A model generated the notes under the pieces. It had not been told where the DNA came from. It searched no databases and saw only the letters and a list, made by a program, of their open reading frames with translations. From Candidatus Latescibacterota bacterium (GTDB lineage: Bacteria; Latescibacterota; UBA2968; GCA-2709665), in NCBI GenBank assembly GCA_963667175.2, contig CAXXXF010000006.1:544001-608000 (forward strand): a stretch of DNA of 64,000 nt, given 5' to 3'. Of the stretch, positions 44,029 to 62,168 are shown piece by piece. A program made the translations under genes and the position numbers. Positions within the stretch are counted from its first letter, which is position 1. The number at the start of each line of letters is the position of its first letter.

Positions 44029-44152
44029 GGGGGTGACAGGATGATGAGAAAGCGGCGCGACGGAAGGACTCGAAAGGCGTCAGTGGCGGGCGTTCGGACT
44101 CAGTATCCAACTTTAGTACGAATTTAACGTCTTTGAGACGGGATTTGTGCCG

Positions 44153-45658
44153 TCACGCGCTAACGCCGTACTTTCTCATCCAGTTCGTGAACGTCTGGTA
44201 GCTGGGAAGCCCCACGAGCCGGGCGGCTCGCGATTTGTTTCCTCCTGTCTCTTCCAGCGCCCGCGCAAGGTAGTGCCGCGCGACCGAGGCCAGCAGGGAT
44301 TGGAGGCTAAGGCCATCGCCGAGGGGGCGTTCAAGTATCTTGGCGTCGACCGAACTTACCGCGGGTAGAAGCGCTTCTTTCACGTCTCTAGCATCTATGG
44401 CGGGGCCGGGCGTCCAAAGCGCGGCGCGATGCAGGGTATTCAGCAATTCGCGGACATTACCCGGCCATGGGTGGGCCAGGAGGAAATTTCTTGCGCCTGG
44501 AGAGAGTCTCTTGTGTTCGAAACCCGGCTGATCGGCATTTTCGTCGTTGACCTGCTCGAGCAATCGGTCCACAAGAAGGTTCAGGTCACCCGTTCGATCC
44601 CGGAGAGCAGGCAGCTTCAAATCCGCCACGGCCAGGCGATAGAAGAGATCCTCCCGGAATCTTCCCGTTGCGACCTCTCCCGCCAGGCTCCTATTCGTCG
44701 CGGCGATGATCCTCACGTCGACCTCGCGATGGGCCGTCGCGCCGACGGGCAGAACCATTCCATCTTGCAGGATACGAAGAAACTTTACCTGTGAGGACGG
44801 GGCAAGTTCGCCGACCTCGTCAAGGAACAGGGTTCCCTTGTTGGCTGCCTCGAAATATCCGATCCTGGCTGCGTCCGCACCCGTGAAGGCACCCTTCTCG
44901 TGGCCAAATAGCTCGGATTCCGCCAATTCGGCCGGTATCGCCCCGCAGTTGACCGCCATGAAAGGGTGATCCCGGCGAAGACTCGCCCGATGGATCGCCC
45001 TCGCAAGCAGTTCCTTTCCCGTACCGGACTCGCCCTGTATGAGCACAGGCACAGACCGCGGCGCCACACGTCGGGCTCTCGCAATTACGCGCGCCATGGC
45101 GTCGCTCTGGTAGATGATATCGGCGAATTCCGGCACCTCGGGTGGAAGTCCGGCGGTCGCCTTCTCAAGACGCTCGTCGGGACCCCTGAGGAGGTTGGGG
45201 ATAAACTCGGCCGAGATATCAAACGGGACGGAGACCGTACGAACGCCATGTTTTGCTGACGACTCAATCAGCTCAGCGGGAAAACGCGTTTTTGCAAGGA
45301 GAATCCAGACGGCCGCCATGGCCGGGGTGCCGGGACTCAGGTGAAAGGTCAGGTCAGCATCATCACCGTGATCGCCAAGCGCCGCCGACACGACCCGAAC
45401 CGCGGCCTCGTAGATCTCGGCAAACTCAGTCGGTCCGGATAACGGCTCGCGGCGAACCGTTATCTCGGCCCGAGATCGCGATCGTAGCCACTCAAGAAAC
45501 GTCGCTACCTCGTCCTCAGGATAGTCGCTCAGGAGTACGGCAGCGTCGTACGAATGCGCGTCAAGCGCCTGGGCGACCGGCCCGATGCCCGCGTCCGCCT
45601 CATCACCTGGCGCGCGTAGATCCGCATGGCCGATCCAGCTGATCAGAATATTGTTCAT
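44153..45658 (-). CDS. RtcR-like sigma-54 enhancer-binding protein (CARF - AAA+ - Fis HTH)
   Basis: GESGTGKE, GAFTGA, LFLDEVGEL, FREDLFYRL, WPGNVREL, GNKSRAARLVGL. N-terminal 'ILISWIG..DL..FHLSPGTPAM' CARF-like. Confidence 0.9.
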   Translation of the reverse strand: MNNILISWIGHADLRAPGDEADAGIGPVAQALDAHSYDAAVLLSDYPEDEVATFLEWLRSRSRAEITVRREPLSGPTEFAEIYEAAVRVVSAALGDHGDDADLTFHLSPGTPAMAAVWILLAKTRFPAELIESSAKHGVRTVSVPFDISAEFIPNLLRGPDERLEKATAGLPPEVPEFADIIYQSDAMARVIARARRVAPRSVPVLIQGESGTGKELLARAIHRASLRRDHPFMAVNCGAIPAELAESELFGHEKGAFTGADAARIGYFEAANKGTLFLDEVGELAPSSQVKFLRILQDGMVLPVGATAHREVDVRIIAATNRSLAGEVATGRFREDLFYRLAVADLKLPALRDRTGDLNLLVDRLLEQVNDENADQPGFEHKRLSPGARNFLLAHPWPGNVRELLNTLHRAALWTPGPAIDARDVKEALLPAVSSVDAKILERPLGDGLSLQSLLASVARHYLARALEETGGNKSRAARLVGLPSYQTFTNWMRKYGVSA

Positions 45659-45671
45659 GAATAGTCAATAT

Positions 45672-45705
45672 ACAAGAAATATTGTTATATCATAATATTT
45701 CTTGT
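45672..45705. promoter_or_regulatory. tandem dyad operator immediately upstream of the activator gene
   Basis: ACAAgaaataTTGT-tatatc-ATAAtatttcTTGT, also a perfect 12-bp inverted repeat. Confidence 0.8.
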
Positions 45706-45929
45706 TCTTGTGGAGAAGAGTAATTTTGTTCCAACTTCAAGTAGCGTAGCTCTATCCAATCACATTAGAGCACGCGTTGCAAGCAAGCGCGAGTTGTCGA
45801 GTGGGAGTTTGCGTGGCAGGCGTCACCGCAACTCCAGATAGAACCCATCAGCGTTACAATTCTTAAGTTTTGCAGTCTATTATAATACCGACGTGCCGGG
45901 AACTCCGCTATTCGTGATCGACTTGGATT

Positions 45930-46739
45930 TTATTCTGGTTTCGTCCCGACAGCGCCGAGGACGTGATTGGGTAGATGTTCGATCTTCGTATCTACCTCTC
46001 CAGAAAGGAGATAATCGAGAGGCATATCACCGTGCCCAAACGCCCATAGAAAGAGTTCGGCTCCCAATGCCGAAGGTTGACAAATGATACCGTCGCCAGG
46101 GACAGCGCTTGCTAACTCCTGCAGAGATTTTTTGTCACCAAACTGCCATCGGTTTTCAATGAGATTATCCGAAAAAAGGCCATGCCATATGTGCGTCATA
46201 ATCTGTGGATTACTCCATTCGGCCCGCGTGAATCCCATTGACTCAGTGTAATTTTGGTATGGAAGGTACACCTCCATTTCAGCTCGATTTTCAGATAGAC
46301 CAAACTGCTTTCCCTTATCGGAGAAGAGGTGCGCAACCGTCGCATAAAGGAGATAGTGCGTTCTGACTTGATACGCCGAAAGTTCATCAACAATCTTGAC
46401 TAGCCTGGCACCGCGGTCATCACGGCCAACCTCGGTTCTTGAAGAAGCTAATACCCCACCAAAATACTCCAACGCAACGGGATCATCAGCGTATGAGCCT
46501 TCATTTACAATTCCCTTTAACACCTTTGGTGGTACCCGACCGGGAGATTCGATCCTATCGCCAAGTTTTCCGGCAGCATTTGAAAAGATGTAACGGACAT
46601 TCTCAATTCGGCGCTGTGCAAATGACTTCAGTTCGCCGCCCAAATAATCTGCTGTAGGTCCGAGAAGCTTATTGGTAAGATCCTTCCCCAGATAGGCAGC
46701 AATTACACTTACGCCGACTGTAGTAATTGGTTCCGACAT
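45930..46739 (-). CDS. Abi-alpha/DUF4393-like protein
   Basis: 'VPPKVLKGIVNEGSYADD...EYFGGVLASS...IVDELS' pattern. Lower GC, GGAG RBS. Confidence 0.55.
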   Translation of the reverse strand: MSEPITTVGVSVIAAYLGKDLTNKLLGPTADYLGGELKSFAQRRIENVRYIFSNAAGKLGDRIESPGRVPPKVLKGIVNEGSYADDPVALEYFGGVLASSRTEVGRDDRGARLVKIVDELSAYQVRTHYLLYATVAHLFSDKGKQFGLSENRAEMEVYLPYQNYTESMGFTRAEWSNPQIMTHIWHGLFSDNLIENRWQFGDKKSLQELASAVPGDGIICQPSALGAELFLWAFGHGDMPLDYLLSGEVDTKIEHLPNHVLGAVGTKPE

Positions 46740-46988
46740 GAGCGACTCCAGAATATTCACCGCAATGAAATTCTGCAAAGTACAACGCGGAAGATCGGTA
46801 GTAATCGTTAATTTGCCACGAATCGAGAATGGCGACTACAATCGTCTCGATACGATTTCGAACGTCCACAAAACCCGTCGGCGCAAGGTATTCCCTTTAC
46901 TATATCGATGGAGCGCCTCAAGTTCGCTTCGCGCACACTACTGTCATACGACGCTGTGTCATTGAAACATCCCAAGTTTGCGCGAAGA

Positions 46989-48590
46989 CTAAGGTCCTTT
47001 GTTGGGTTCTTCGTCTTCGACAGTTGCAGCATCGCTGGGCGCCGCTAGATCCCGCGCAAGGCTCTCGCATAGAGCGATGGCAGAGAGACAAAACGACGCT
47101 GCGAACGATGTTGACACGGTGATCCCTTGCCTATGCTGCCCAAAGTCACCAACAGATTGAATGTGGTCTGCGAGCAAATAGGTGGGTTTGGTCACGAAAC
47201 TTGCAACCGGGACGTTGTCCTCCGTGCCCGTGATGAGACGGAGAATGCTACACTGCTGCCCGCGTCGCTGAGGAAGAACGTCGAACTTTACGCCCACGAA
47301 CTTCCATTCTTGAGGAATAGACTCGCTGGATGGTAATTCGGCCTCCCAGATCAGATCCAGCGCATGGTTCGCGATGCTCCGAGCCCAAGTCGTGGATTGG
47401 GTCGGTTCAGGGTGCAGATCACGGATTGCCTTCTTCACGTAACCTAGAAAAATTGGATCCGACCCAGATACCTGATCAACACGGAGTTGGAGGAGGTCTC
47501 GAATGTTGTCATTAAATCGCTTTGCGTCACCAAATAGCCGCTTCAGATTCTCCACTTCGCTCGCTTGCTCTTGCGCATACTGACGCATAAAGCGACACGA
47601 CGATCTAAGCTTTCTCCCTGACGAAACAGCGAAGCCACGCTGCTTAAGGACCCGCATTCTCCCGTCCGGTATTTCGGATTGTGGAACGTCACGATTGGCG
47701 AGTTCTGCCAAGTCGGACCGAATCTCAACGTCGCAACCATCCCATAGAGCGTCCAGTAACCCATGTCTTTCTTCCAAAGTGGTCATTGCAACGTCGTCCA
47801 CGTGCGGTTTCGAAAGCGACGCCTCTTCGGGGGCTTCCAATAGTAGCCGCTCTGCAAGAGCAGCTGATAACGTCGGGACGCCCCCTGTCCAATTGGCGAA
47901 TTCCTTTCTGGCTGAGCCGTCAAGCTCGACGCCTCGCGATTCGAATGGCTTGAGGAAACCATCCCAGTCGTGTTCCTCGAAGCAACCGACATGCAGCGGC
48001 GTGTCGTAGAATATTTCCCAGAAATCCGACGTCCGGGACTCTTCGGTCTTGCAAAGCTCCCGGAGCCTGCTCCGGCTTCCCGTCACAACGCGGAGGCTGC
48101 TCATCTGGCAGAGCGTTCGCAGATTGTCCCATAGGTTTCTCGTTATGCGGCCTTCGGCGAGAAGGCGGTCGAACCCGTCGAGTACGGCTAGAATACGAAC
48201 TCCGCCGGTTTGCATTTCGCTAAAAACGAGATGTAGAAGATCGTGGAGGTCCTCGCCCTCCAAGTCCAAGTAATCTGCGAATTCAGGCTCTACCTTCTGC
48301 AGAACAATTTTGATGTGTTCCGTGAAACGTCGTCGGAACTCATCATCGGTCACCGGTGTGCCATGTCTGAGATCCCAATACAGCGACGTAGAGAAGTGCT
48401 CGCTTGGGCGCGCGAATTGCGTGGCAAGGTGATTCAGGAGGACGGACTTTCCAAACAAGGCAGGGCCGATGACGGACACGTGATCGGGGTTCGACTTGCT
48501 CAAGTGTCGGCATAACTCTTCAAATAGGCGTTCACGGCCGAGCATTGATGGGACATCAACGCCGAGGACTTGATAGGGAATGTCGCTCAT
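46989..48590 (-). CDS. STAND/AAA-like P-loop ATPase with atypical Walker motifs
   Basis: 'LGRE', GPALFGKS, AVLDGFD, TGGVP. ATGA overlap with the upstream gene. Confidence 0.75.
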   Translation of the reverse strand: MSDIPYQVLGVDVPSMLGRERLFEELCRHLSKSNPDHVSVIGPALFGKSVLLNHLATQFARPSEHFSTSLYWDLRHGTPVTDDEFRRRFTEHIKIVLQKVEPEFADYLDLEGEDLHDLLHLVFSEMQTGGVRILAVLDGFDRLLAEGRITRNLWDNLRTLCQMSSLRVVTGSRSRLRELCKTEESRTSDFWEIFYDTPLHVGCFEEHDWDGFLKPFESRGVELDGSARKEFANWTGGVPTLSAALAERLLLEAPEEASLSKPHVDDVAMTTLEERHGLLDALWDGCDVEIRSDLAELANRDVPQSEIPDGRMRVLKQRGFAVSSGRKLRSSCRFMRQYAQEQASEVENLKRLFGDAKRFNDNIRDLLQLRVDQVSGSDPIFLGYVKKAIRDLHPEPTQSTTWARSIANHALDLIWEAELPSSESIPQEWKFVGVKFDVLPQRRGQQCSILRLITGTEDNVPVASFVTKPTYLLADHIQSVGDFGQHRQGITVSTSFAASFCLSAIALCESLARDLAAPSDAATVEDEEPNKGP

Positions 48591-51500
48591 AGCTCATCCT
48601 CCGTCTTCTTGGAGCCGAAGCCCCGTCCAAGTCCAGCGCCGTAGCCATCCCCGTCTGAGAATCCGCCACCGTCGCCCTCGCCACGTCCGTAGCCATCGAC
48701 GATATCCGATTCTCCACGCTCCCGGACCGCCTGCCGGCGCTGATACTCGAAGTCGACGTTGTGTCCTATCCAGTTCGCCATCAAAGGAACCGCAAGCACG
48801 TAAGCAGAGCCTCGTGGCGACTCCCGGAGTTCAAGCAGTTCGAGTTCTCGCAGAAACTCGAGATCATCTCCCAGGCTCTCTTCACGCGGGATGGCAACGC
48901 CGCTCTCCTCGAGCTTCAGCTCAAGCAGGCTCAGCGTGATGGGATCCGGTCCATCCTCGAGTTTTCGACACAGCGCAAGAATAAAGCGCCTGCGCTCTGT
49001 GCGAGCGTAACCCCAGAGCGTGCGAAAGTGTTCGTTGTCCTTCGTCATATCTTCAGCACACGATTCTGCGGCGCCTACGGTCACCGTTCGTTCTTCGGTA
49101 TGGACGGCACGCTCGAATATCCGGTTGCACAGAGACTGGATCAAAAAGGGTTGTTGCGAACACAGGTCTACCACGCGGTCCCGCGCGTCGGGCACGTACG
49201 TGAGCCGCCCCTCCACCGGCCTTGTCACGAGCAGGCGGGCGTCCTCCAGCCGGATTTTGCTCACGGGGATCCGGTGACCGAACCCGAACAGCGCCGACCA
49301 GTATTCTTCCCGCAGTCTCTTGAGACGACGCGAGCCGGTCAGTATGGCTGAGAGATCCGGATACGCGTGCAGCATGTAGCGGATGTTCTCGGGTACCTGC
49401 GGACTTGTGATCCCCGAGTCGATGCCCTCCTGGAGTTTGTCGAACTCATCCAGCATCAGCAGAAGACGCCGCGGGCTGGCAGCCTCAAGAACCGCCTGTA
49501 TGTACAGCTCGAAGGCTTCGAATGGTCGCGGCCCGGCAAACGCGGTTGACAACGCCTTCGTGAACGCCACCTTGAAACGCTTGCTCGTGTCCGGGGGATC
49601 CATTTCCGGCAAACACACCCGGAGGCCCGCGTCGTCCATCGCCCACCCGACGTCGCGCGCCAGGAGTCTGAAGACCTCGTTGGTTTCCAGTCCGCGTTTG
49701 CTCTTGTGGCCCTGGCCGCCCTGGAGGGAGCAGTTCACGACGATCCAGCCCGGAAGCGCGTCGGGATCCTGAAGGTGTTTGAGAATCGACGTCTTTCCCG
49801 TCCGGCGGTTGCCTTCCAGAAGAATGACGTTCGCCCGGTCGCTTGTTGAGAATTGGCGCCGGATCCTATCGATGATATCCTGCCGGCCGTAGAACATCTC
49901 CTTTCGATCAATGGGGCTGCCCACGATGTACGGGCTTGCTCCGATATCGGGGACTTGGACGGCTTCGGAGGTGGAACGCACGTCTACCGCGAGCGGGAGT
50001 TCACCGGACACAGGCCGGCCGTCCATGCGTTCGGCTCGCCATCGGAGCATGAACGGGTAGAGACCGGTTGCGACGTCCGCCGGAATTCGCGCCGTAAAGC
50101 TGAACGGTCCATTCTCGGCAAGATAATCGACACGCCCCTCGCCAATCGACGGAAACGTCGACGCCCGGACGTTTCGCAGTGCAAGCGGCGAATGGTTCAT
50201 TAAACGGACCCGAACCTCGTTTTCCGCCCCCGCTACGACCGCGTCCGGTTCAATGCCCGGCGCCAATGTGACGTCATCCAATATTGCGTCCAACTCGGCC
50301 CGAACCAGCCGGGAGATCCTCCTGGTGAACGTTATCGCATGAGCGAATGTCTGCAGCAGGTTCTTTCTGACTGAAGGATCAGCGGAACTGCCCGAACTCC
50401 CCCACTCTCGTGTCGCATGTGCACCTGCCAAATGGGCATTTCCTATGCCTAAGATAACCGAATGGACTTTCTCAAGACGGTTCCAGGCTCCGTCTAGGAG
50501 CGCCATGCGCCCCGATCCGGGCGGCACGTGGTTCAGACCATGCAGTGACTTCAAGGCTTCCGCGAGATCCTTCAGCCATCTGTTAAATTGACTCACGTCG
50601 ACAATACACGAGCGAACGACCTGTTTTCGGAGCGACGAGGCGGCGTGAGCAATGCGTTCCAGGAGCTTGACCCGGTCCTCGGCCCGTACCGGTCTCCACA
50701 GCCTCCGTAGTTCGGGAGATCCATTCAGCCATGACCCAACCGGGTCTTTGCTGTTTGTGACCAGGATGCGTACGAGCGCGGCAAAGGGATCTTCTCTTTC
50801 GTCACCCATCTGCTTTAATAGTTGTTCCTGTATCGAAACCTGCGGCGCCGGTACGCGAAGGTTTTGTAGCGTTCGAGCAGGGAGATGCCGGATCGTTTCG
50901 CCTCGGGCGTGACCACGGATCCACTGTTGATATGCATCAGACGCAAGGACGCTCTTCAGATAAACCGGGGAGATTGATTTCCCGGGGCGTATCACGGTGA
51001 GACTCCTCGTCGCCACGGCGTCGACAATGCCGCTCTGCTGGGATACGACCGCCAACGTTCCGACGTTGCCGGACGTGGTGATGAGAACGTCGCCCGCGCG
51101 CAACCGGTGCTTTGACCGCACTCGCCTGGTACAGTTCTTCGTCAGGAAGAGAGACGGAGATTGTACTCCGTTGCGATTCACGTCCGCTGCGCGCACAAGG
51201 CCGGCGAATACCGATGGATCGTTCCGTCGCGAGGTGGTACCAGACTTGTCGTACGATACACCTGTAAAGATATCAGCCACCTCGTTGAGTGGGTGTACCG
51301 GGACCCCGGCGTCGCTCCCGAGAACCCGAAGGGAAATTGACAGGATTTTCTCATCGGTTCGCTTTGCAATGAGATCACCGCCCCTGTCGGCGAGTTCTTT
51401 GATGGGGGTCTCCCAGAGGTCCTCAATCGGGTGTTTCTGTTGGAGGTCGTCTGGTTCACCGGTCCGGAATTCCGCCGTGATCGCGCGCGCCGCCTCGACG

Positions 51501-52699
51501 GCCATGTCGCGGCTGAGCTCGTCCTCCGGTCGAACAGACGGCGAATCTTCGATCCGCATGAACCGAACGGCCTCCTTCGCTTTTTCGCGGCGGAAGAGTG
51601 CCAGGCTCATTTTAATCCCCGTGACTGGAAGGAAGGCCCCGTCCGGAAGCGACACCACGCCTTCCACACAGTAATCGGTGAGGAGTTCCTTGCGGACCTT
51701 CTCGTCGGGACCCGTCCGATAGAGAGCGCCATCAGGAAGCGCGACGACGGCGCGACCGCCCGGGCGAAGCGAAGCCATCGCGTGCTGGAGAAACAGCGTC
51801 TCGATGTGCGTTGATGGAACCGGGAAATGGGTTGCGCTCTGCGCCCGCGCGTGTCGGCCCCATGGCGGTACTGCCACGACGCAGTCGAATCCTTCCGAGG
51901 ACCGCTCTCCGGCCGGGGGCCGATCCAGGGCGTCGCCGAGTTCGAGACCGGGTTGATCCATGCCCGCCAGGACGACGCGCGCAAGCCCGATGACGTGCGC
52001 GTACGGACTGATTTCCACCCCGTACACGCTTTGTTGAAGCGACTCGGGCATCCGCGTTGCGTTTTCGAGAAGTCGGCCGGCCACCGTGGCGAGCAGCCCA
52101 CCGGCCCCGAAGCACGGATCGTAGACGCGCTCTCCCGGACGAGGATCCAGAAGTTCAGCCATCAGCTCAACCACGCGTTTGGGCGTGGTGTGGTCTCCCG
52201 GGATCTCGCCCGTTTCAGCGGCGTTTGCCACAAGGGCCCCAAGCGCGTTCCCTGCCGAATGCCTGCCGGTATCGGATTCCAAATCGAAAGGCCTGCCCCA
52301 CTCCAGAAGTGTCTCGATCACCTCAGGAGATTCCCGGACCAGGTTTTCCACGATGGGCGCAAGCAGCTTCAAGTACTTACCGGGACCTCGATCGGGCGCG
52401 TTACGCAACGCAGGCAGAACCCCCCCGCCAAGCGCGTCCACGAGTTCGCCGCCGCGAAGATCGCGCCAGGAAGACCAATGCAGACCGCGAGGTAGGGCAG
52501 ACGGACAGTCGTGACTCTTGAGAGCGTCCGCGGGTTCCTGTTCGGCATCCTTGCGCTCGGCCCAACGCAGCAGAAACAGGGCGGCCGCAAAGGACGCGAT
52601 GGCCGACTCGGGCTGACGGTCGCCAGCCTCCTGCCCGGCGATCTCATCGAGGCGGGTCCGGAGTTCGGACACGCGAGATGTGAGTTCAGATTGATTCAT
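48587..52699 (-). CDS. fusion: HsdM-like N6-MTase fold + HsdS-like TRD + Ig-like + STAND/AAA ATPase (1370 aa)
   Basis: HTTPKRVVELM, YDPCFGAGG, YGVEI, VPPW, LFLQH. TRD 'GDVLITTSGNVG..P...IQE'. ATPase 'FYGR..EGNRRTGKTS..LMLDEFD'. ATGA overlap at 52696-52699. Confidence 0.85.
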   Translation of the reverse strand: MNQSELTSRVSELRTRLDEIAGQEAGDRQPESAIASFAAALFLLRWAERKDAEQEPADALKSHDCPSALPRGLHWSSWRDLRGGELVDALGGGVLPALRNAPDRGPGKYLKLLAPIVENLVRESPEVIETLLEWGRPFDLESDTGRHSAGNALGALVANAAETGEIPGDHTTPKRVVELMAELLDPRPGERVYDPCFGAGGLLATVAGRLLENATRMPESLQQSVYGVEISPYAHVIGLARVVLAGMDQPGLELGDALDRPPAGERSSEGFDCVVAVPPWGRHARAQSATHFPVPSTHIETLFLQHAMASLRPGGRAVVALPDGALYRTGPDEKVRKELLTDYCVEGVVSLPDGAFLPVTGIKMSLALFRREKAKEAVRFMRIEDSPSVRPEDELSRDMAVEAARAITAEFRTGEPDDLQQKHPIEDLWETPIKELADRGGDLIAKRTDEKILSISLRVLGSDAGVPVHPLNEVADIFTGVSYDKSGTTSRRNDPSVFAGLVRAADVNRNGVQSPSLFLTKNCTRRVRSKHRLRAGDVLITTSGNVGTLAVVSQQSGIVDAVATRSLTVIRPGKSISPVYLKSVLASDAYQQWIRGHARGETIRHLPARTLQNLRVPAPQVSIQEQLLKQMGDEREDPFAALVRILVTNSKDPVGSWLNGSPELRRLWRPVRAEDRVKLLERIAHAASSLRKQVVRSCIVDVSQFNRWLKDLAEALKSLHGLNHVPPGSGRMALLDGAWNRLEKVHSVILGIGNAHLAGAHATREWGSSGSSADPSVRKNLLQTFAHAITFTRRISRLVRAELDAILDDVTLAPGIEPDAVVAGAENEVRVRLMNHSPLALRNVRASTFPSIGEGRVDYLAENGPFSFTARIPADVATGLYPFMLRWRAERMDGRPVSGELPLAVDVRSTSEAVQVPDIGASPYIVGSPIDRKEMFYGRQDIIDRIRRQFSTSDRANVILLEGNRRTGKTSILKHLQDPDALPGWIVVNCSLQGGQGHKSKRGLETNEVFRLLARDVGWAMDDAGLRVCLPEMDPPDTSKRFKVAFTKALSTAFAGPRPFEAFELYIQAVLEAASPRRLLLMLDEFDKLQEGIDSGITSPQVPENIRYMLHAYPDLSAILTGSRRLKRLREEYWSALFGFGHRIPVSKIRLEDARLLVTRPVEGRLTYVPDARDRVVDLCSQQPFLIQSLCNRIFERAVHTEERTVTVGAAESCAEDMTKDNEHFRTLWGYARTERRRFILALCRKLEDGPDPITLSLLELKLEESGVAIPREESLGDDLEFLRELELLELRESPRGSAYVLAVPLMANWIGHNVDFEYQRRQAVRERGESDIVDGYGRGEGDGGGFSDGDGYGAGLGRGFGSKKTEDEL

Positions 52700-54300
52700 C
52701 TGTCGACGCCCTCCCTTGCGGTCATTCGGACAACGATCGAGGCCGCGCCAGCTTCCTCGGCAACCCGGCGGGCGACCTGGATCTCTTCCGGAGATCGGAC
52801 CGCCACCACGAGCTTCCCGTCCGGTTCCTTGAATACGGGAGGCTCGTACGGGGCTGGCTTCGTCTTCTTGCCGGCCGCTGTCCGCGAGGCTGCCTTCGCC
52901 CTGGAATCTCTTGCACCGGTCCGCTCGGGCATCTCCGGCCCGCCGCCAGCAGTCCGCATGATTTCCTTCGCCTTCGGGTGCAGATCCGGTGCTCGAACGA
53001 GCCTTCGGCACTCAAGCTCGTGAGCGGGTTGCGGCAGTCCATTGATACGCGGGAGATCCGGGGCTGGCGCTTTCAGTACGTGCGCGGACGCGGCAGTTAC
53101 GGATCCAAGATCTACCGTGAGCCGGGGCTTGACCTCGAGGTCGATCAGATTTCCTCCGTGCCAGACGCGCACGTCTCCGGCCACCTCTCCCAACGCAGGC
53201 GCCGGAAGGAGTTCCCACGCCGCCTGACTCGACCATCGTTCGAGGCGGATCCGAAGCTCGTCCGCCCGCTCGCCTTCAAGCCGCAAGCCCAATTCGAAGC
53301 CGCCGTCGAGCCCATGCTTCTCCAGATTCGCCGACATGACCAGTCCCCTGCCCGAGTCGGACCACAACGCCTTGGCGTGCAGCCACTTGAAGCCGAGCAC
53401 CCGGGCGCCCGCCTCCGCGAGCGCGGCGAGGGCGGGCATGGCGCGGAGACGGGTGCGCGCCAGCACCGTGAGCGAAACGCCCTCGCGGGCACGCGCACAG
53501 AGACGCTCGACCACCGGATGGCCGGCGTCCCATCCGTAGCTCGAAACGATGAGTTCCCCGGAGGCGCCGTCGATGAGATCGACGGCCTCCTCACGCAGTT
53601 GAGTGACTGAAGACGTGGTTGCCAGGACATGCGGGGACGGCGCCGGATGATCGACGCGGCCGAGGGGCTTCACCGCCCGAAAATTTCCAAGTTCCACCAT
53701 TTCGTGCTCTGCGCCTTCCCATATTGCCCATCGAACGAGCTCTGCAGCTTCTTTCACTTCCTTCGGGGTCAGCTCGACGGCCAACTCCTCGTTCCGCTCC
53801 AGCGCTTCGCGAGTGAGGTTCGCCGTCAGCAATAGCCCCGCAGGGCGCTCGTCGGGGTCGACCAGTACCAGCTTGGCGTGGAAGTGCGGCGCCGAACGGA
53901 TGAGCGCCCAACCGCCAAGGCGACTCAGCACGTCGTTGTGTTCCGCGAGCACACGCCGTTCAAACTCCCCGTCCCCGGGTTCGTCACCAAGACGGGCTTC
54001 CGAGGCGAGCATGACGTACACCCGCACGCCCCTCCCGGCGGCTTCGAGGATCGCGGCTTCGACGTCCCGGTCGGCCAGCAGGAAGCTGGAGACGACGACT
54101 TTCTTTCTTGCGGAGGCCAGGAGTTTGGCGATTCGATCCTTCAGCTCCCCGCCCTTTCCCGATATATGGACTTCCCTGCCCGTTTCCGGCTGGCGGATTG
54201 TCTCCCTCTGGCGGGAACTCCACGTGGGTGGCAGTCGATAGTTGCGCTGGTTAATAATAGATGTGACCTGCTTTGTCCAGTTCTTCATGGTGATCTCCAT
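52696..54300 (-). CDS. phospholipase D-family nuclease with two HKD motifs
   Basis: HAKLVLVD..TANL..NEEL and HAKALWSD..SANL..FEL. TAATG overlap at 54300. Confidence 0.85.
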   Translation of the reverse strand: MEITMKNWTKQVTSIINQRNYRLPPTWSSRQRETIRQPETGREVHISGKGGELKDRIAKLLASARKKVVVSSFLLADRDVEAAILEAAGRGVRVYVMLASEARLGDEPGDGEFERRVLAEHNDVLSRLGGWALIRSAPHFHAKLVLVDPDERPAGLLLTANLTREALERNEELAVELTPKEVKEAAELVRWAIWEGAEHEMVELGNFRAVKPLGRVDHPAPSPHVLATTSSVTQLREEAVDLIDGASGELIVSSYGWDAGHPVVERLCARAREGVSLTVLARTRLRAMPALAALAEAGARVLGFKWLHAKALWSDSGRGLVMSANLEKHGLDGGFELGLRLEGERADELRIRLERWSSQAAWELLPAPALGEVAGDVRVWHGGNLIDLEVKPRLTVDLGSVTAASAHVLKAPAPDLPRINGLPQPAHELECRRLVRAPDLHPKAKEIMRTAGGGPEMPERTGARDSRAKAASRTAAGKKTKPAPYEPPVFKEPDGKLVVAVRSPEEIQVARRVAEEAGAASIVVRMTAREGVDR

Positions 54301-55412
54301 TACAGTCTCCAATCTTCGGCGGCGGCGAGACGCCAGAACAAAGGATCGGGACGTTCTGGCGTCCCGTTGCAGACCTCGTCGAAAAGTTCCGTTCGAGTTG
54401 GGAGTTCTATCTCGTACTGTTCGAAGGGGTCAGCCGCCTCACCGCGCCATGCTGAATAGCGCTCAGAGGTCGCATAGTCCCGGATCCGTGCGCGCAGGCG
54501 CCACTTCGCCCACGACTGTGCCTCGGCCTCAGACGGGGCGGTGATCGGTACGTCCGGAACGTTAAGCGGCTCGAACTTTCCGTAGAAGCCCAGGTACGGT
54601 GACTCGAATTCCAGGACGCGGGACATGGCCTCCCGCTCGGGGTCGTTGGTGTCGTCGAAGCTCACGCACAGCACCTGCCGTTTTTCGTCCCACTGCTCCA
54701 ATAGACCCCCGTTTTCGAGCAACGTGCGCCATACCCGGTCGGGCGACGTGGATGGCGCCTCCAGTTCGGTCGCGACCTTCTTCCCTTCCAGGATTCCGGT
54801 GAGCTGCAATCGCCCGTCGCCGAAGTTCCAGCGGAGACGAAGGAATCCATTGGCGTCAACTGCCTCGGCTTTGTCCTCAAGGTCATCAACGCGAATCACG
54901 GCGCCGCGTCCGGCGGCCGGCTTGATGGGCGTCCCCTCGACGTTTCGTATCCAAGTCGGTAGTGCGTCGTGTCGGCGCTCTTCCGTGCGCTGCCGCTTGT
55001 TGCGGAGCTCGTCGTGCGCGGTGGGCTCCTTCCACGGTTCGATTCGCAAGATGGGCGACGGCAGCAGAGGGTCGACACTCGCCCAGATCGTCCAGGTTCC
55101 GCACTCGGGAACGAGCACCTTTTCAGTGTCGATGGCCGTCTCCCCGGCTTCGGTGAGTTCGAAAGCGCGACCGCGCTTCTCGAGAAGCTTGTAGGCGACT
55201 CCAATATCCAGGAGCCGCTCAGCGACGACGCGCCGCGACCGGGACTCGAAGAGCAGATGCTCGGCCACGTCGCGCGCGCCCGTTCCGCCGTTCTCGCGAA
55301 TCCGCAGGAGGACGGGCATGAGTTCGGGCCGTTTCTCAGCTTTGGCGACCTGCCCGACGACGCGCCAGCACCTGACTTCCACGGGTCGTTCCAGAATGAT
55401 GTTCCTGTTCAT
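54300..55412 (-). CDS. hypothetical protein with N-terminal winged helix
   Basis: 'ARDVAEHL..VAERLL...LLEK...FELTEAGE'. ATGA overlap with the helicase stop. Confidence 0.75.
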   Translation of the reverse strand: MNRNIILERPVEVRCWRVVGQVAKAEKRPELMPVLLRIRENGGTGARDVAEHLLFESRSRRVVAERLLDIGVAYKLLEKRGRAFELTEAGETAIDTEKVLVPECGTWTIWASVDPLLPSPILRIEPWKEPTAHDELRNKRQRTEERRHDALPTWIRNVEGTPIKPAAGRGAVIRVDDLEDKAEAVDANGFLRLRWNFGDGRLQLTGILEGKKVATELEAPSTSPDRVWRTLLENGGLLEQWDEKRQVLCVSFDDTNDPEREAMSRVLEFESPYLGFYGKFEPLNVPDVPITAPSEAEAQSWAKWRLRARIRDYATSERYSAWRGEAADPFEQYEIELPTRTELFDEVCNGTPERPDPLFWRLAAAEDWRL

Positions 55413-58045
55413 TGTTGCCTCCGGTTGATGTCCTTCCCCCACCGTTTGCTCTCAGCCAATGCCTTCAGCAAGGTACCCCTTGCCCGACGCATCGCCTGCC
55501 GGTCGCCAATGACGACGCGCTGATAGCGCGCTCTGGTCAGGGCGACGTTCAGGCGGTTCGGGCTCTCCAGGAAGCTCGTCGGGTGGGGCCGGGCGAAACT
55601 GATCAGCACGACGTCGGCCTCGTGCCCCTGGAAGCGGTCAACGGTGCACAGCTCGATGCGGAGGTAGGGCCGTTCCTTCTGACCCCGTGTAAAGTGGCGC
55701 ATTGCGTGGCGCTGCCCGGTCCATTTATGGAGATAGCCCCGCACCTTCCGTTCCTGTCCCCGGTAGAAGGTCAGGACGGCCGCCTCCCAGGTACGGTCGT
55801 CATTCAGCGGGTTCGCACGCGCCCACGCATCGAAGTGGCGGAGTTCTTTTACAACCGATCGAGCCTCCCTTTGGTTGCAGTTGAGGCGCCGGTCGAAGGC
55901 GCCACGAACGTCGCGCCAGACGGCATGGTAGGCGTAGCGGGGGTAGCTCCACGCGCGTTCGTCCTTCATCGATTCCGGGGTTTGGAGCGCCTTGCCGCCG
56001 TAGACGTGTTTATGGGATAACGCCGCAATCTCGGGATGCATGCGGTGCTGCGTGCTCAGGAGCACGTGACGCGGATCGAGCACGAAATCCGGCAGACCGT
56101 CCGACAGCGCGCTTCCGGTGCGCTGGTTCCCGTTGCGCTCGAACCCACGATGAAGCGATTCGAGAACGGACGGAAGGGCGACGCGGCGTACGCGATCGAT
56201 CTCCAGCCAGACCTCTTCCGGATCTGCGCCGGTCTCAGCGTTGGGGAGTAACTCTTTCACTTCCTGACGCAGGCGTTCCGCGGTGGTGGTCCGGTTGTCA
56301 CTCGAATCGTCCGAATCCTCTGCGAAACGCTGCTCGTACAACCTCGCGAGGCGCCAACCGACTTCGGACGCCCACTCCGGCGCCTCTTCGCCGTCTTGTC
56401 CGGCAAGGCGAAGCCACGCATCCGCGCGACGATGCGCGACGTGCAGAGTGTTCTCCGGCCCGCGCACCATCGCGAGGTCAAGCGGCAGTTCGTCCACCCT
56501 CCGCTCCAGCGCGGTAGCTGTACCGATAGCGACGTCCGCGGTCGAGAGCCCGTGGTCATCGAGGTCCGCGTCGGCAAGCGTTACGTCCCGAGCGGCGCAC
56601 TGCTCGCGGTACCCCTGGCGGGTACGTTCGTCCTCTGCGACGACGGCGGCGGTGCGCCGTTTATGGCGGCTGGGACGCCCCGCGTTGAAGGCGTCAATGC
56701 AGGCGTCCCGGATCCCGGGGTCGCGAAGACACGTCTCAATGTTCACCGCCATCGCCTCGTCATCGACGTACGGGGAGAGTTGCTTCGGGTCGCCGACGAT
56801 GATCCAGCGCTTCGCCAGCAACGCGGGGACCAGGAATTCCTGGAATGGCGTCTTGGAGGCTTCGTCGACGATGAGCACGTCGAAGGTGGTGCTGGCGTGG
56901 CCGCCCGACTTGCCCCGGTGCTGTTTAATGTCCGGATGCTGGAGGATCCCGATTGTGGTCCCGCACACGAGGTTGGCGGCGTCCAGAACCATGCGCTCGA
57001 TAACCGAGGGGCCCGGGCGCAAGGCTTCAAGAAAGGCTTCCTGCGACGGCGTGAGAGACCTTCGCCCCTGAAGCTCCCGGAGCAGGCGCTCCCTCTCGGT
57101 TCGAACGAAACGGTCGAACTGCCATGGGCGCGCCTTCTCGGAGACGTTCCGCCGGTCGCCGATGCGGACCGGGATCACCAGGTCGCGGTGTGGGTTGGAC
57201 TCGTCCATCAGGCGCTCCAGCACGTTGTCGACCGCGACATGCGTCGACGCCGAGAGAAGCACCCGCTTCCCGCGCTTCGCAAGCTGGAGCACCAGTTCGC
57301 CGATCGCCGTCGTCTTTCCCGAACCGGGCGGCCCTTCGAGAAACGCGAAATCCGGCGTTCCGAGGGCCTGCTCAACGAATTCGCGTTGCTCGCCGGTTCC
57401 GGGACGACTCTGGTCCGTCAGCACCATCCAGTCCGGGTCATCAATGCACTCCGCATCGACAATCGGCCATAAAGCGCTGTCGCGATCTTCGAAGAGCCGC
57501 AGCAAAGGGCGGTGAAAGGACGAAGGGGTGTTCTGAAGCGCCTGTAGAGCATCGATCTGGCACTTGATTTGCCACGTGTTGGGCCGGAGCAGGAGCTCGG
57601 TCAGGTCCGGAACTCGCTCGAGCAACAGTTGGTTGGTATTGGGGTCCCGGTCGATTACCGCAATCTTGTGCTGCGGACCGAAGCCCAGTCGGTCGTTACG
57701 ACGGGCATCCGGCCCTTCGGTTTCGGCGGAGGGCTCGGCCTCGTAGACCTCCTTCACGTTTTCGTCCAGGAAGGTCCGAAATGTGGCCTCCGGCTCATCG
57801 CGACGGCCCGGCGGCTCGGTCAGCTCGATCCAAGTTCCATCGGTCTCTGCCCGCCCGGCGCCGTTGCCGCCGTTGGCCGGCGGTTCGCCGGGGCGCCACG
57901 CGAGCCGTTTCACGGCAGCGTCGCTGTTCAGGTATTCCCGAGTCCGCCTCAGGAATTCGTAGAATATCCGGAGCCCATAGAAGGTGTTCTTCATCAGGAC
58001 GTCCGGGCGGTGAACCCCGAGGTTCCAGTAGTGCAGTAGCGCCAT
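55409..58045 (-). CDS. SF1B UPF1/DNA2/NAM7-like helicase (AAA_11/AAA_12)
   Basis: GPPGSGKTT, STHVAVDN, VDEASK, GDPKQLSP, QHRMHP, TFYRGQ, TVDRFQGHE, NRLNVALTRAR. Confidence 0.92.
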   Translation of the reverse strand: MALLHYWNLGVHRPDVLMKNTFYGLRIFYEFLRRTREYLNSDAAVKRLAWRPGEPPANGGNGAGRAETDGTWIELTEPPGRRDEPEATFRTFLDENVKEVYEAEPSAETEGPDARRNDRLGFGPQHKIAVIDRDPNTNQLLLERVPDLTELLLRPNTWQIKCQIDALQALQNTPSSFHRPLLRLFEDRDSALWPIVDAECIDDPDWMVLTDQSRPGTGEQREFVEQALGTPDFAFLEGPPGSGKTTAIGELVLQLAKRGKRVLLSASTHVAVDNVLERLMDESNPHRDLVIPVRIGDRRNVSEKARPWQFDRFVRTERERLLRELQGRRSLTPSQEAFLEALRPGPSVIERMVLDAANLVCGTTIGILQHPDIKQHRGKSGGHASTTFDVLIVDEASKTPFQEFLVPALLAKRWIIVGDPKQLSPYVDDEAMAVNIETCLRDPGIRDACIDAFNAGRPSRHKRRTAAVVAEDERTRQGYREQCAARDVTLADADLDDHGLSTADVAIGTATALERRVDELPLDLAMVRGPENTLHVAHRRADAWLRLAGQDGEEAPEWASEVGWRLARLYEQRFAEDSDDSSDNRTTTAERLRQEVKELLPNAETGADPEEVWLEIDRVRRVALPSVLESLHRGFERNGNQRTGSALSDGLPDFVLDPRHVLLSTQHRMHPEIAALSHKHVYGGKALQTPESMKDERAWSYPRYAYHAVWRDVRGAFDRRLNCNQREARSVVKELRHFDAWARANPLNDDRTWEAAVLTFYRGQERKVRGYLHKWTGQRHAMRHFTRGQKERPYLRIELCTVDRFQGHEADVVLISFARPHPTSFLESPNRLNVALTRARYQRVVIGDRQAMRRARGTLLKALAESKRWGKDINRRQQ

Positions 58046-58092
58046 CTTCTTCTTACGTCCTTTCCTTTGCTATTGAGATTATGAGACGTCAA

Positions 58093-58419
58093 TCAGCCCA
58101 TCGGCCGCCGGTTACGCCGACGACCTTGCGGGCGCAGCCCTCGGAAGTCTCGATTCCGGTACGTGGTCAGGACGTCTCCTTCTGAACTGCATACGACGTG
58201 AATTCCCTCGAAGTCAGCCAATTCGATGCCTTTACGCAGGAACCTCGTGACTTCCTTGCGGCCGATGACGTAGATTTTCGCGCCGCGCACGTAGACCACA
58301 CGACCATATTTTATCACCGTCGAAAGGGCAGTTTCGGAAATCCTCCGGGCCATCATCCGCATACGGGCATGGGTCGTGATGACATGGCTCCGGCGCTTGT
58401 CTGCACAATCGTAGCTCAT
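58093..58419 (-). CDS. DUF4258-like small basic protein
   Basis: 'TTHARMRMMARRI...VIKYG...VVCS..G.VLTTYRN'. AAAGGAG RBS. Confidence 0.75.
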   Translation of the reverse strand: MSYDCADKRRSHVITTHARMRMMARRISETALSTVIKYGRVVYVRGAKIYVIGRKEVTRFLRKGIELADFEGIHVVCSSEGDVLTTYRNRDFRGLRPQGRRRNRRPMG

Positions 58420-58472
58420 CAGTTCGCTCCTTTCGTCGGCGGTCAATTCCGCTTGACTCCGGATCTGATCAG

Positions 58473-58487
58473 GCCACTTCCGTGCCA
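58473..58487 (-). promoter_or_regulatory. secondary sigma-54 promoter candidate
   Basis: TGGCAC-GGAAG-TGGC, GG-N10-GC spacing kept. Confidence 0.55.
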
Positions 58488-58583
58488 ACGTGACTCGATC
58501 CGTTCCCGGCAAGCTCAATCTTCATTCCTGCTGATTGCTCCATCCAAATTGCATATAACTTTATGGTGGCATTTGGGGGAAGC

Positions 58584-58598
58584 GCAAACCGCGTGCCA
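58584..58598 (-). promoter_or_regulatory. sigma-54 (-24/-12) promoter
   Basis: TGGCAC-GCGGT-TTGC, exact match to TGGCAC-N5-TTGC, pointing into the operon. Confidence 0.85.
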
Positions 58599-58823
58599 AT
58601 TTTCGCTGAACCCCGTCCTTCCCGGCCAGTCTTCATGTTCCCATGGCTCGATACCACGATCAAGCGATCATGGGGAAATTCTATAATACGTTGTCTTTAA
58701 TCAATTTAAGCAATAATCTCCCAGGTCCTCCTTTCAATGTCGAAGACCGGATCGGCGGGGCGGACACAAGGATCCGACCGGACGATCCACCTGATCGATG
58801 TCCTTGTCAAGGACCACAAGTAT

Positions 58824-58857
58824 ACAATATATTTTGTGTAATTATAAGAATTATTGT
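58824..58857. promoter_or_regulatory. tandem dyad operator / putative enhancer (UAS)
   Basis: ACAAtatattTTGT-gtaatt-ATAAgaattaTTGT, same architecture as 45672..45705. Confidence 0.75.
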
Positions 58858-59608: not shown

Positions 59609-60454
59609 CTACGTGACAAGATCAAACGGCAAGTCTGCAATATCTCGGAGACGATTGCCGATAATCATCGTATCCAAAGAATCCTGGACGGCTTCGTTTC
59701 GACTCTCTTTGGTGACCTTCACAAGTTCATTAAGGCAGAAGTGGTAGACACAATCGATATCGCCGGTTCCCAATGCGAGAGACGCGATTCGGGTTGGCAT
59801 TGGTTCGGCCGTCACCACGGCGATATGGGGGGTGTGCCCTTTACGGTTACGTATCAGGTTCAAGCCTTCCGTTCGGGCATTCTGCGACCGATCACTTCGA
59901 AGAGTCAATTTGCACGAAATGCTCGCGTGCAGTATTGGAGACGCTTCTTCCTGATTTGTCCGACGTAGCGGCGTCAAGTACGGGATGCCACCCTCGTGTA
60001 CGATTACCCAATGCTTGTTTATCGCCTCGTCTGCAACAGGTGTGCGCGCAACGATGACCTCGGGCTTGACGACATAATCACCAAGGGCCGTCTGAGCCAC
60101 CTTATTGGCTTGGATCAGTTCATTCAGGGTAGCCAAATGTCGGTATTGCACGAATTCCGATATATCGCCGTGCACAGAATAAATCCAATCCGCTGGACGA
60201 AGATGTTCGAGGACTTTCATGGTTGATTTAATGAATTCCCGTACTGCCGCTTCAAACTTGCTCCCGGCGGTTTGACCGCTTATTCTGGTGCTCCCAAGCG
60301 AATAGCCAAATTCCTCAATGATCCCGCGCGCCAACGAACAACTGAGATTGCTGCTGGTGTCGGCAATGCTCGGGGTTCGATCTCTTTTCAAGAATATCGC
60401 TCCAGAACAGACTTGCCGTTGAAATTGCTCGCGCAGTTTTGCGATTTCAGCCAT
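59609..60454 (-). CDS. NgoMIV-family type II restriction endonuclease
   Basis: GQTAGSKFE, LHASISCKLTLRSDRSQNARTEGLNLIRNRKG.TPHI..VTAEP.P.RIASLALGTGDIDCVYH. Confidence 0.9.
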   Translation of the reverse strand: MAEIAKLREQFQRQVCSGAIFLKRDRTPSIADTSSNLSCSLARGIIEEFGYSLGSTRISGQTAGSKFEAAVREFIKSTMKVLEHLRPADWIYSVHGDISEFVQYRHLATLNELIQANKVAQTALGDYVVKPEVIVARTPVADEAINKHWVIVHEGGIPYLTPLRRTNQEEASPILHASISCKLTLRSDRSQNARTEGLNLIRNRKGHTPHIAVVTAEPMPTRIASLALGTGDIDCVYHFCLNELVKVTKESRNEAVQDSLDTMIIGNRLRDIADLPFDLVT

Positions 60455-60459
60455 CAGAT

Positions 60460-61896
60460 TCAGCCTTTATTGGGTTTGATGTAGCCAATAACATATTCCT
60501 GGTGCATACGCTGTTGAATTTGTGACGATTTATCGAGCGTGGCGCTCGCAGGGAGCATGCGCCGATTCCTGTCTAGTTTTCTGATCCCGATCGCAGGAAC
60601 GTCGAATCCGATTGACCGGCCAATATCGGCCAGACAGTCAGCCGTCTCCGTATCTCGACCGCGCATTATGGAACTTCCAACAACGACGATGGCCGCCTTG
60701 CCGGGCCGAAGGACGCGATGCATCTCGCGAAGAACTCTGGTCATCTCCGAGTAGTATCGGTGCAGTACTCTACCCTTCTTCGCATCGCGTTTGGCGACGT
60801 CATTGACAACGCCAAGTGTATGGGAGGGAAGGGTCTCCAACACCAAACCAGTAGTTGCCTCACCTCCGATAGTCTGACTGCGCCTGTGGCCAAGATCTTT
60901 CACCGAGAAGCCCATCCACACCAGCGAGAATTTGTGGGCGCGCATATAGTCAATCGCATTCGACGCATATGGCGGTGAGGTGACAATTAGATTGACACAA
61001 TTGTCGCATAGAGGTAATCTTTGCGCGTCACCGTGCTCGATGACAGGCTGTTGAAGATCACGGTCCAGTTCTGGAAGTTGGGCTAAATTTCTCCTGAACC
61101 GCTGGTGAAATTCTCCAAATGGCGACCGCAATTGCTTGGATATGAATCGGAGTCGAGGACGCTGCTGATCCAGTTGCTCCTTACCACAGAGGAGTTCGCC
61201 CTTCGTATCGTACACCACCTTCGCTCGATGCGGACGGGTGTGTGCCAGGTCCAGCGCGAGCGAGACACCGCCTGACTTTGTGATGATGATCGCGGAAAAA
61301 ACGACTTCGAAGAACGCAGCGAGGGCTTCGACAGAACTTGACCGGATGTCAGATCCTGACGGGATCCGACGAATCTCCGACATCAGCGAGGCCAGATCCC
61401 TCTGAGTGGCACGGTCAAACCAATAATCGACAAATCTGGACGTATTTGCGTCCCAGTCTCGATGACAGGCCTTTCTTTGACGCTCACGTCGATCATCCGA
61501 AAATAACGCTACTCTGTTGAGGATAGCATTACCCACTCGAATGACTTCGCGATGATCAACCGACGTCGACTTTGACTTCGCGATCAGTACCGCCAGCGGG
61601 TCCGTGTCGAATCCTACAGGCTTCCGGTTCGCCAGGAGTGCTTCGACAAGCGTCGTGCCGGAACCCATCATGGGATCGAGCACCGCATCTCCGGGTTCCG
61701 TCAGGGCATTGATGAATTTCCGAGGCAGTTGCGGCGGAAACTTGGCCGGAAATGCATGAAATTGGTGAGACGCATAGTTGCTGTTATCCGAATGGAAATC
61801 GAGATCCTCCGCCAGCAGCGCAATGAGTTTCTCGCGGGTCGTTCCGTCTATGTTTCCACGCGTTTCGGAAAATATGGAAAGCTGTGAGGCCTGCAT
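60460..61896 (-). CDS. amino-DNA methyltransferase (SPPY, probable m4C)
   Basis: HAFPAKFPP, VLDPMMGSGTT, IVTSPPY, RVLRPG. Confidence 0.88.
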   Translation of the reverse strand: MQASQLSIFSETRGNIDGTTREKLIALLAEDLDFHSDNSNYASHQFHAFPAKFPPQLPRKFINALTEPGDAVLDPMMGSGTTLVEALLANRKPVGFDTDPLAVLIAKSKSTSVDHREVIRVGNAILNRVALFSDDRRERQRKACHRDWDANTSRFVDYWFDRATQRDLASLMSEIRRIPSGSDIRSSSVEALAAFFEVVFSAIIITKSGGVSLALDLAHTRPHRAKVVYDTKGELLCGKEQLDQQRPRLRFISKQLRSPFGEFHQRFRRNLAQLPELDRDLQQPVIEHGDAQRLPLCDNCVNLIVTSPPYASNAIDYMRAHKFSLVWMGFSVKDLGHRRSQTIGGEATTGLVLETLPSHTLGVVNDVAKRDAKKGRVLHRYYSEMTRVLREMHRVLRPGKAAIVVVGSSIMRGRDTETADCLADIGRSIGFDVPAIGIRKLDRNRRMLPASATLDKSSQIQQRMHQEYVIGYIKPNKG

Positions 61897-62134
61897 ATCC
61901 TGAGTCTTTTCAATCGTTCAGAAACGGTCCCATGAAAGAATATCTGCCGCAACGGTTCGGACCGACCGATAGTTCGATACAGCTGGTGGAGTTACGTACG
62001 CACGACTAATATAGTGATATTTTGTTCACTATGCAAGATGGCGTCGTACCTTTCATGTGATAGTCTGTTACAGACCTTCCGGTCGGATCCGGCCGATCCG
62101 GTTCATCTGAACATCGATCATAGGCAGACGATAT

Positions 62135-62168
62135 ACAGTATTTCTTGTGGTTTCACAAGAAATCCCAT
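62135..62168. promoter_or_regulatory. third, degenerate tandem dyad operator
   Basis: ACAGtatttcTTGT-ggtttc-ACAAgaaatcCCAT. The reverse complement of the first box matches ACAAGAAATATTGT at 13/14. Confidence 0.55.

Follow-up and report, generated by a model that had tools for sequence, protein, structure and literature searches.

Why should one 34-bp tandem dyad stand both at the start of a gene for a sigma-54 activator and, 13 kb away, upstream of a sigma-54-like promoter box that heads a predicted defence operon? The question is raised by a stretch of 64,000 nucleotides from Candidatus Latescibacterota bacterium (assembly GCA_963667175.2, contig CAXXXF010000006.1, positions 544,001 to 608,000), which we refer to as the window. 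The original prediction held the two copies to be binding sites of the activator, linking the operon with the activator's own promoter. Comparison across genomes supports this proposal, because the motif tracks the activator family in many genomes, keeping set positions with respect to the gene and its sigma-54 boxes, and because it is missing from other enhancer-binding proteins. We consider it very probable that the 34-bp motif is this activator's binding site, and it most likely docks a sensor-activator that would switch on anti-virus genes. The features on which the argument turns are:

44153..45658, minus strand: PspF2-type CARF-AAA+-helix-turn-helix (HTH) sigma-54 activator, 501 amino acids, PDLC01995 E 7.5e-198, GAFTGA and Walker motifs intact
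45672..45705, minus strand: tandem dyad of class A (site 1), 13 nt before the ATG, over the activator's own predicted promoter
58824..58857, minus strand: tandem dyad of class C (site 2), by sequence comparison the operator of a deleted activator copy and the putative enhancer of the defence operon
58583..58598, minus strand: sigma-54 -24/-12 box TGGCAC-N5-TTGC, with a weaker second box at 58472-58487

On re-reading the sequence, both sites have the skeleton ACAA-N6-TTGT-N6-ATAA-N6-TTGT, both are preceded by TAT on the plus strand, and all three N6 segments are unlike between them. The 14 bp originally given between site 1 and the activator ATG is right as a coordinate difference, but the intervening bases number 13, the A of the ATG being at 45658; site 2 lies, as described, 226 bp upstream of the sigma-54-like box, which starts at 58598 on the minus strand. 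The element consists of two 14-bp dyads, of consensus about AYAAGAWWTCTTGT, with a 20-bp period. A background scan of the 5,520,873-base genome finds the exact skeleton at only two places, both in the window, and at one further place (C18:23828) when up to two mismatches are allowed; the single dyad ACAA-N6-TTGT, found at 26 places, is not rare. A weight matrix of 11 activator-upstream sites, with site 1 among them and site 2 left out, scores site 1 at 43.5 bits and site 2 at 42.7 bits, the genome's next best site at 24.4 bits, and gives 2 sites of at least 18 bits in the reversed-genome control. A LexA site was rejected, as the inner spacing is N6 rather than N8 and the sites are too few.

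Bacterial enhancer-binding proteins (bEBPs) bind dyads through an HTH domain, and open sigma-54 promoters by DNA looping and ATP hydrolysis. The activator has the features of such a protein, namely an AAA+ domain with GAFTGA and Walker A/B motifs and a Fis-type HTH, and rpoN is present in the genome, together with ten full bEBP ATPase domains (the activator's included) and four HU/IHF-family genes. In PADLOC it matches PDLC01995 (RtcR_PspF2) over its full length (residues 3-499, 656 bits, against 230 for PspF1 and 200 for RtcR), and it does not reach the RtcR cut-off NF038308 (334.3 versus 650 bits). It is flanked by defence genes and a HAD hydrolase gene, with no adjacent divergent rtcBA, and rtcB is on contig C3. 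Restriction-modification (R-M) or other defence genes adjoin PspF2-type activators in the window and in annotated relatives. The CARF domain was matched in 35 of 168 phylum genomes, and the phylum loci used below are the best 30 of 38 CARF matches. A contig scan was dominated by the common AAA+ motif and yielded one true homologue (L001), while the other 79 loci became controls; when E. coli was searched by blastn with a Pseudomonas homologue, the 20 matches listed included only partial ones of glnG type, and the homologue was not found with that query.

The motif search upstream of orthologous activators that had been proposed finds, in 11 of the 30 phylum loci (our own among them), a class A tandem dyad lying 12-14 nt ahead of the start. 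In a validation set drawn from metagenomes and viruses (88 loci, of which 69 were usable and 64 remained once near-duplicates were removed), the 11-site matrix gives at least 16 bits in 40 of 58 loci, mostly 11-13 nt from the start. A pattern drawn from the class A sites and site 2 matches 5 of 21 family relatives, exactly those with the activator, and none of the 16 family genomes without it; its presence is circular, as it was drawn from those sites, while its absence is not. Outside the family the pattern is at background (14 other genomes, against 20 for the reversed control). A -10-like TAnnnT starts at the last base of the second dyad in 22 of 52 class A sites, compared with 1 of 52 at the mirror end, and this accounts for the TAT seen before both sites. 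In the window it belongs to a candidate promoter that is not listed by a consensus promoter scan of the minus strand:

45667..45695, minus strand: putative sigma-70-type promoter inside the operator, with a weak -35, a 17-bp spacer and a -10 TATATT ending 8 nt before the ATG

The activator mRNA is probably leaderless, and the -10-like element at the dyad end suggests an autorepressed activator promoter. A more distant CARF activator (38%; L188, G372) is likewise followed by a sigma-54 box, 116 bp beyond its stop codon, and has no matching class A site.

The original prediction missed that the family's usual enhancer appears to lie within the activator's open reading frame (ORF), in a site that we call class B. 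With the matrix trained on non-coding sites only, the best tandem score within the ORF falls at one homologous spot in all 30 phylum loci, at nt about 1140-1170, directly before WPGNVRE. A sigma-54 box scoring at least 25 stands at or soon after the stop codon in 21 of these loci, the score being a hand-weighted consensus whose thresholds were fixed after the phylum data; the nine loci that lack such a box are six genes of our own family, two frameshifted genes and L107, which has an intergenic tandem and box of its own. Against 5,000 synonymous recodings the class B codons score higher at p<=0.02 in every one of the 28 genes left once the two frameshifted ones were dropped; the best of six offsets was taken, against a null without correction for that choice. 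Synonymous conservation among well-filled columns also peaks at class B (0.74 versus 0.51), which is spelled with rare codons, as seen from the frequencies at the site and in the rest of the gene for AGA (0.61 versus 0.08), TCT (0.69 versus 0.12), CTT (0.64 versus 0.18) and ATT (0.90 versus 0.33).

The validation loci show class B at 10 bits or more in 44/64, mostly 324-335 bp before the sigma-54 box, a recoding p<=0.01 in 52/64, a sigma-54 box in 54/64 (2 on the reverse-strand control) and a box abutting the stop codon (-20..+10) in 48/64. In a proteobacterial set made of L001, class-sample and plasmid loci (10 of 13 usable) the corresponding counts are 8/10 for the site, 8/10 for p<=0.01, 8/10 for the box and 7/10 for the box at the stop, whereas the control bEBPs (59 of 79 usable) give 0/59, 1/59, 7/59 and 0/59. 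Nor was class B found in L280-L282, CARF activators that are related only weakly and have a different HTH. In two loci (L186, L193) class B is lost or weakened, and an intergenic tandem (23.5 and 23.8 bits) lies just after the stop and before the box. A DUF4258 homologue was found near the promoter in three loci, these two and the window (58093-58419), all with an intergenic rather than an intragenic site. We considered an IHF site in the codons for the HTH and dropped it, as most genes read TAC CAG and not the IHF consensus. Frameshifted activators occur at L098, L093 and L184, and the shift in L098 falls in the A-run of the intragenic site, which is possibly a slippage hotspot. Downstream of the activator in annotated loci lie Type I R-M genes (hsdR first), vWA/PP2C/kinase/helicase clusters, AriA/Nsn-like ATPases and PDC-M09A. 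The window itself has only remnants of this arrangement:

44481..44514, minus strand: class B intragenic tandem dyad, about codons 382-393, decayed to 4.1 bits (22-29 in the closest relatives)
44137..44152, minus strand: dead sigma-54 box at the stop codon, with the -24 half recognisable and the -12 half lost, followed by the HAD hydrolase gene

What, then, is site 2? A further point missed by the original prediction is that, on sequence comparison, the copy at 58824 is left over from a second activator gene that was deleted:

58740..58810, minus strand: decayed remains of another activator gene's 5' end, in register downstream of the dyad and at the live gene's distance of 13 nt from it

This 5' relic matches L082 at 34 of 48 bases, and none of 200,000 random 48-mers does as well. 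With an nhmmer profile of coding 5' ends it scores 13.3 bits, outranked in this genome by the live gene alone (genome-wide E 0.28); in none of the spacers does nhmmer detect an activator 3' relic, nor does it detect a 5' relic at C12:51356, C12:55431 or the G049 C17, G055 and G057 copies. Site 2 keeps TATACT at the -10-like position. A clearer case is found in genome G040, where an operator is followed by a 5' relic of about 90 nt (E 1e-9), a TGA and a sigma-54 box 111 bp from the site, preceding a Type I R-M operon 1.9 Mb from that genome's activator. The decayed 5' end in register and the G040 parallel are the reasons for tracing site 2 to a second cassette that has lost its activator by deletion. 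The unlike N6 segments had been read as selection on the boxes rather than recent duplication; the boxes do look selected and the copy is old, but site 2 is not an independent site, being derived from the deleted activator's operator. On contig C1 of G040 we observe three co-oriented operators (2464691, 2470502, 2483235; L141, L142), two of them with activator 5' relics, and one such relic on this contig is fused in frame to an unrelated ORF of 1070 amino acids; the repeated duplication of the 5' end suggests an insertion hotspot. The window, too, has another copy:

62135..62168, minus strand: third operator copy, more decayed (24.4 bits), with a faint activator 5' relic (nhmmer E 0.04) and no sigma-54 box after it
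59609..61896, minus strand: NgoMIV-type Type II R-M pair, with a sigma-70-like promoter at 62008-62036 and no sigma-54 box found when one was sought

The same NgoMIV-type methylase, its sigma-70-like promoter conserved, is found below an activator relic both here (59609-62168) and in G058 (L153:4885-7185), where the operator has a 19-bp period.

The positions, the conservation, the codon bias and constraint and the relic origin are established from the sequences, and from them we propose the following circuit. The family cassette would consist of an operator A over the activator's own sigma-70-type promoter, the activator ORF with an enhancer B in its codons, a sigma-54 promoter at the stop codon, and a defence operon. 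The activator's HTH would bind the tandem dyads, and on A the protein would hold down its own synthesis. A CARF ligand would let the AAA+ domain assemble into oligomers and, acting from B, open the sigma-54 promoter; by analogy with RtcR, a candidate ligand is an RNA end with a 2',3'-cyclic phosphate. In this genome the intact activator has lost its downstream promoter and most of B, and a second cassette has lost the activator ORF by an internal deletion, leaving operator A 226 bp from the sigma-54 promoter. The surviving activator, 13 kb away, would now drive the seven-gene operon with this relic operator as enhancer, and since B and its promoter have decayed here, the operon probably depends on the relic. 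Binding, autorepression, activation, ligand and induction are what we infer. We regard the whole circuit, with motif, autoregulation and relic-driven operon, as likely.

Several points weigh against this circuit. The loci were ranked by likeness to the window's activator and are related to each other, and the counts are not independent trials. The distance of 320-380 bp between B and its promoter exceeds the 80-150 bp usual for enhancers, and the five closest relatives keep B at 23-29 bits despite a degenerate stop-codon box (20.5). Strong distal copies without a good sigma-54 box nearby exist in G049 (C17), G057 (C1 and C4), G055 and twice in G040, and those of G049, G055 and G057 have neither a good box nor a detectable relic. 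The nine other full bEBP ATPase domains in the genome could serve the promoter. The 3' relic before the box is weak, as 64 of 3000 random stretches are equally good, and site 2 came to notice through being conserved. Lastly, decay simulated at a rate of 0.25 leaves the operator at 40 bits or more in 0.5% of cases and operator plus box in 0.005%, but the rate comes only from the 8 of 31 bases at which the relic differs from bases invariant in six live genes, and at 0.10-0.15 operator and box survive by chance in 6% to 1%.

We take the decay simulations as moderate evidence that the operator and box at site 2 are held by selection. If they were not, the motif could still be the activator's operator while the copy at 58824 is a passive relic and the sigma-54 promoter is silent or served by another activator. 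The descent of the copy from a deleted activator gene would fit, as would the box-less relics at 62135 in the window, in G058 and twice in G040, and the ten bEBP domains. We nevertheless think this unlikely, since operator and box are intact beside a relic ORF that has decayed, the box-less copy at 62135 has itself decayed to its 24.4 bits, and G040 repeats the deleted-activator design.

More improbable, in our view, is that the dyads are repressor operators only, with A covering the sigma-70 promoter, B serving as an auxiliary looping operator like lac O2, and the copy at 58824 repressing a basal sigma-70 promoter of the operon. The one-sided TAnnnT of the class A sites, the TATACT kept by site 2 and the persistence of B in the five relatives with a degenerate downstream box are in favor of it. 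On the other hand, in 19 of the 30 phylum loci A is absent from the 120 bp next to the start, and most of these still have B and a box, the loss of B in L186 and L193 is matched by a tandem next to the box, and GAFTGA is intact. Slightly less probable still is the reading that the motif is bound by some other protein, such as a global regulator of the host or a nucleoid protein, or that B is a mere AT-rich codon or slippage feature. The AT-rich sites in a genome of 59% GC and the frameshift of L098 might suggest it, but it fits poorly with two strong sites genome-wide and none in the 16 family genomes without the activator, with a B that matches a matrix from non-coding sites only and keeps the 20-bp period, and with the absence of B from L280-L282.

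In the circuit that we favor, the sigma-54 box at 58598 heads seven minus-strand genes, after which the activator follows:

58093..58419, minus strand: DUF4258 protein, 108 amino acids, first operon gene, which we take from its family link to have a BrnT-like toxin fold
55409..58045, minus strand: SF1 helicase, MkoA-like in its helicase part
54300..55442, minus strand: uncharacterised protein of about 370 amino acids, no family match, with unnamed look-alike clusters
52696..54312, minus strand: two-domain phospholipase D-type nuclease (DrmC/MkoB-like)
48587..53011, minus strand: fusion of HsdM-like methylase, HsdS-like part and ATPase, true start probably near 52700
46989..48590, minus strand: STAND-like ATPase partner
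45930..46778, minus strand: 282-amino-acid protein, Abi_alpha-like as a lead only (PF14337 in 17-41% of look-alike cluster members)

The methylase-specificity-ATPase fusion and its partner ATPase matched no named system. Homologues of the pair occur at L156, L158, L159 and L198, and in G136, G128 and G039 the pair lies downstream of the activator. Elsewhere in the genome, an hsdR/M/S Type I R-M operon on contig C12 (G000:C12:44695-51389, L180) stands behind a sigma-54 box nearly identical to that of the window. The contig has weak tandem sites at 51356 and 55431; one scores 18.5 bits, near noise, and is 247 bp away from a sigma-54 box that is among only 22 strong ones in the genome. We consider this operon a probable second target. 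Among the distal copies of other genomes, G049:C17:38681 (L143) and G057:C1:19694 (L148) are syntenic strong operators at the end of a large nucleoside triphosphatase gene, with no valid sigma-54 box or relic, and the genes beside it are presumably proteasome/Pup-like. G057:C4:797521 and 923522 (L149, L150) form an inverted duplication in which operator and weak box precede PDC-S11, followed in L149 by a PDC-S65/SIR2-like gene. The window also encodes, at 33293-36202, a subtilase with Ig-like (ASH/HYDIN) repeats and an EF-hand.

Proteins of this kind have been described before. In the sections covered here, Makarova et al. (2014; PMC4012209) predict PspF-like/RtcR_PspF2 CARF-AAA+-HTH proteins to be sigma-54 activators of downstream R-M and defence genes, and cite a protein of Polaromonas naphthalenivorans CJ2, the strain carrying L193; these sections give no binding site or promoter, and 'promoter' has 0 matches in the supplements other than file 6. 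The protein family is the same in the window, but the activator's target operon is located upstream, with a relic operator as the connection. For the RtcR-associated CoCoNuT superoperons (PMC11090510), the HTH is proposed to bind an upstream activating sequence and BrnT-like toxin genes stand at the head, with no specific site identified in the text consulted; by Pfam, NCBIfam and PADLOC the window operon is without McrBC-like genes and the McrB-McrC-like coiled-coil core. RtcR of E. coli and Salmonella (rtcBA), whose CARF domain binds tRNA fragments ending in a cyclic phosphate according to the part of Hughes et al. (2020; PMC7790460) used here, has the CARF-AAA+-HTH design in common with the activator, but is divergent from its operon, while the PspF2 family is co-directional. 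Intragenic bEBP sites (Nla28/Nla6) are reported in Myxococcus xanthus (PMC7910581), where the portion consulted does not describe a site in the activator's own gene kept by codon choice. Matches to Mokosh type I in PADLOC are partial (MkoA profile 532-1081 of 1112, MkoB 301-589 of 610), with the extra gene of about 370 amino acids in between. Our literature search, which left most subscription papers and the CoCoNuT supplements outside, found no binding site, promoter or test for the CARF-sigma-54 family. The regulatory element is real and belongs to a known but apparently untested regulator family, and we have not found its design described.

The 34-bp site and its promoter offer a concrete target for testing the predicted immune switch, and open the way to a ligand screen. 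R-M is usually pictured as constitutive, and inducible Type I restriction would contradict that picture. An enhancer in the codons of its own activator and the growth of a regulon by deletion of redundant activators would be unusual designs, and the motif can be used to predict the defence operons under a PspF2-type CARF sensor in a genome. We hold it an even question whether PspF2 genes, with the enhancer dual-coded in the ORF and the sigma-54 promoter at the stop codon, are self-contained switch cassettes that make whatever lands downstream inducible, and whether, once several cassettes have accumulated, deletion of redundant ORFs leaves operator-promoter stubs. Such stubs would build up an immune regulon that is dispersed, gated by a signal and governed by a single CARF sensor, and that here would comprise the operon of the window and probably the Type I R-M operon of contig C12.

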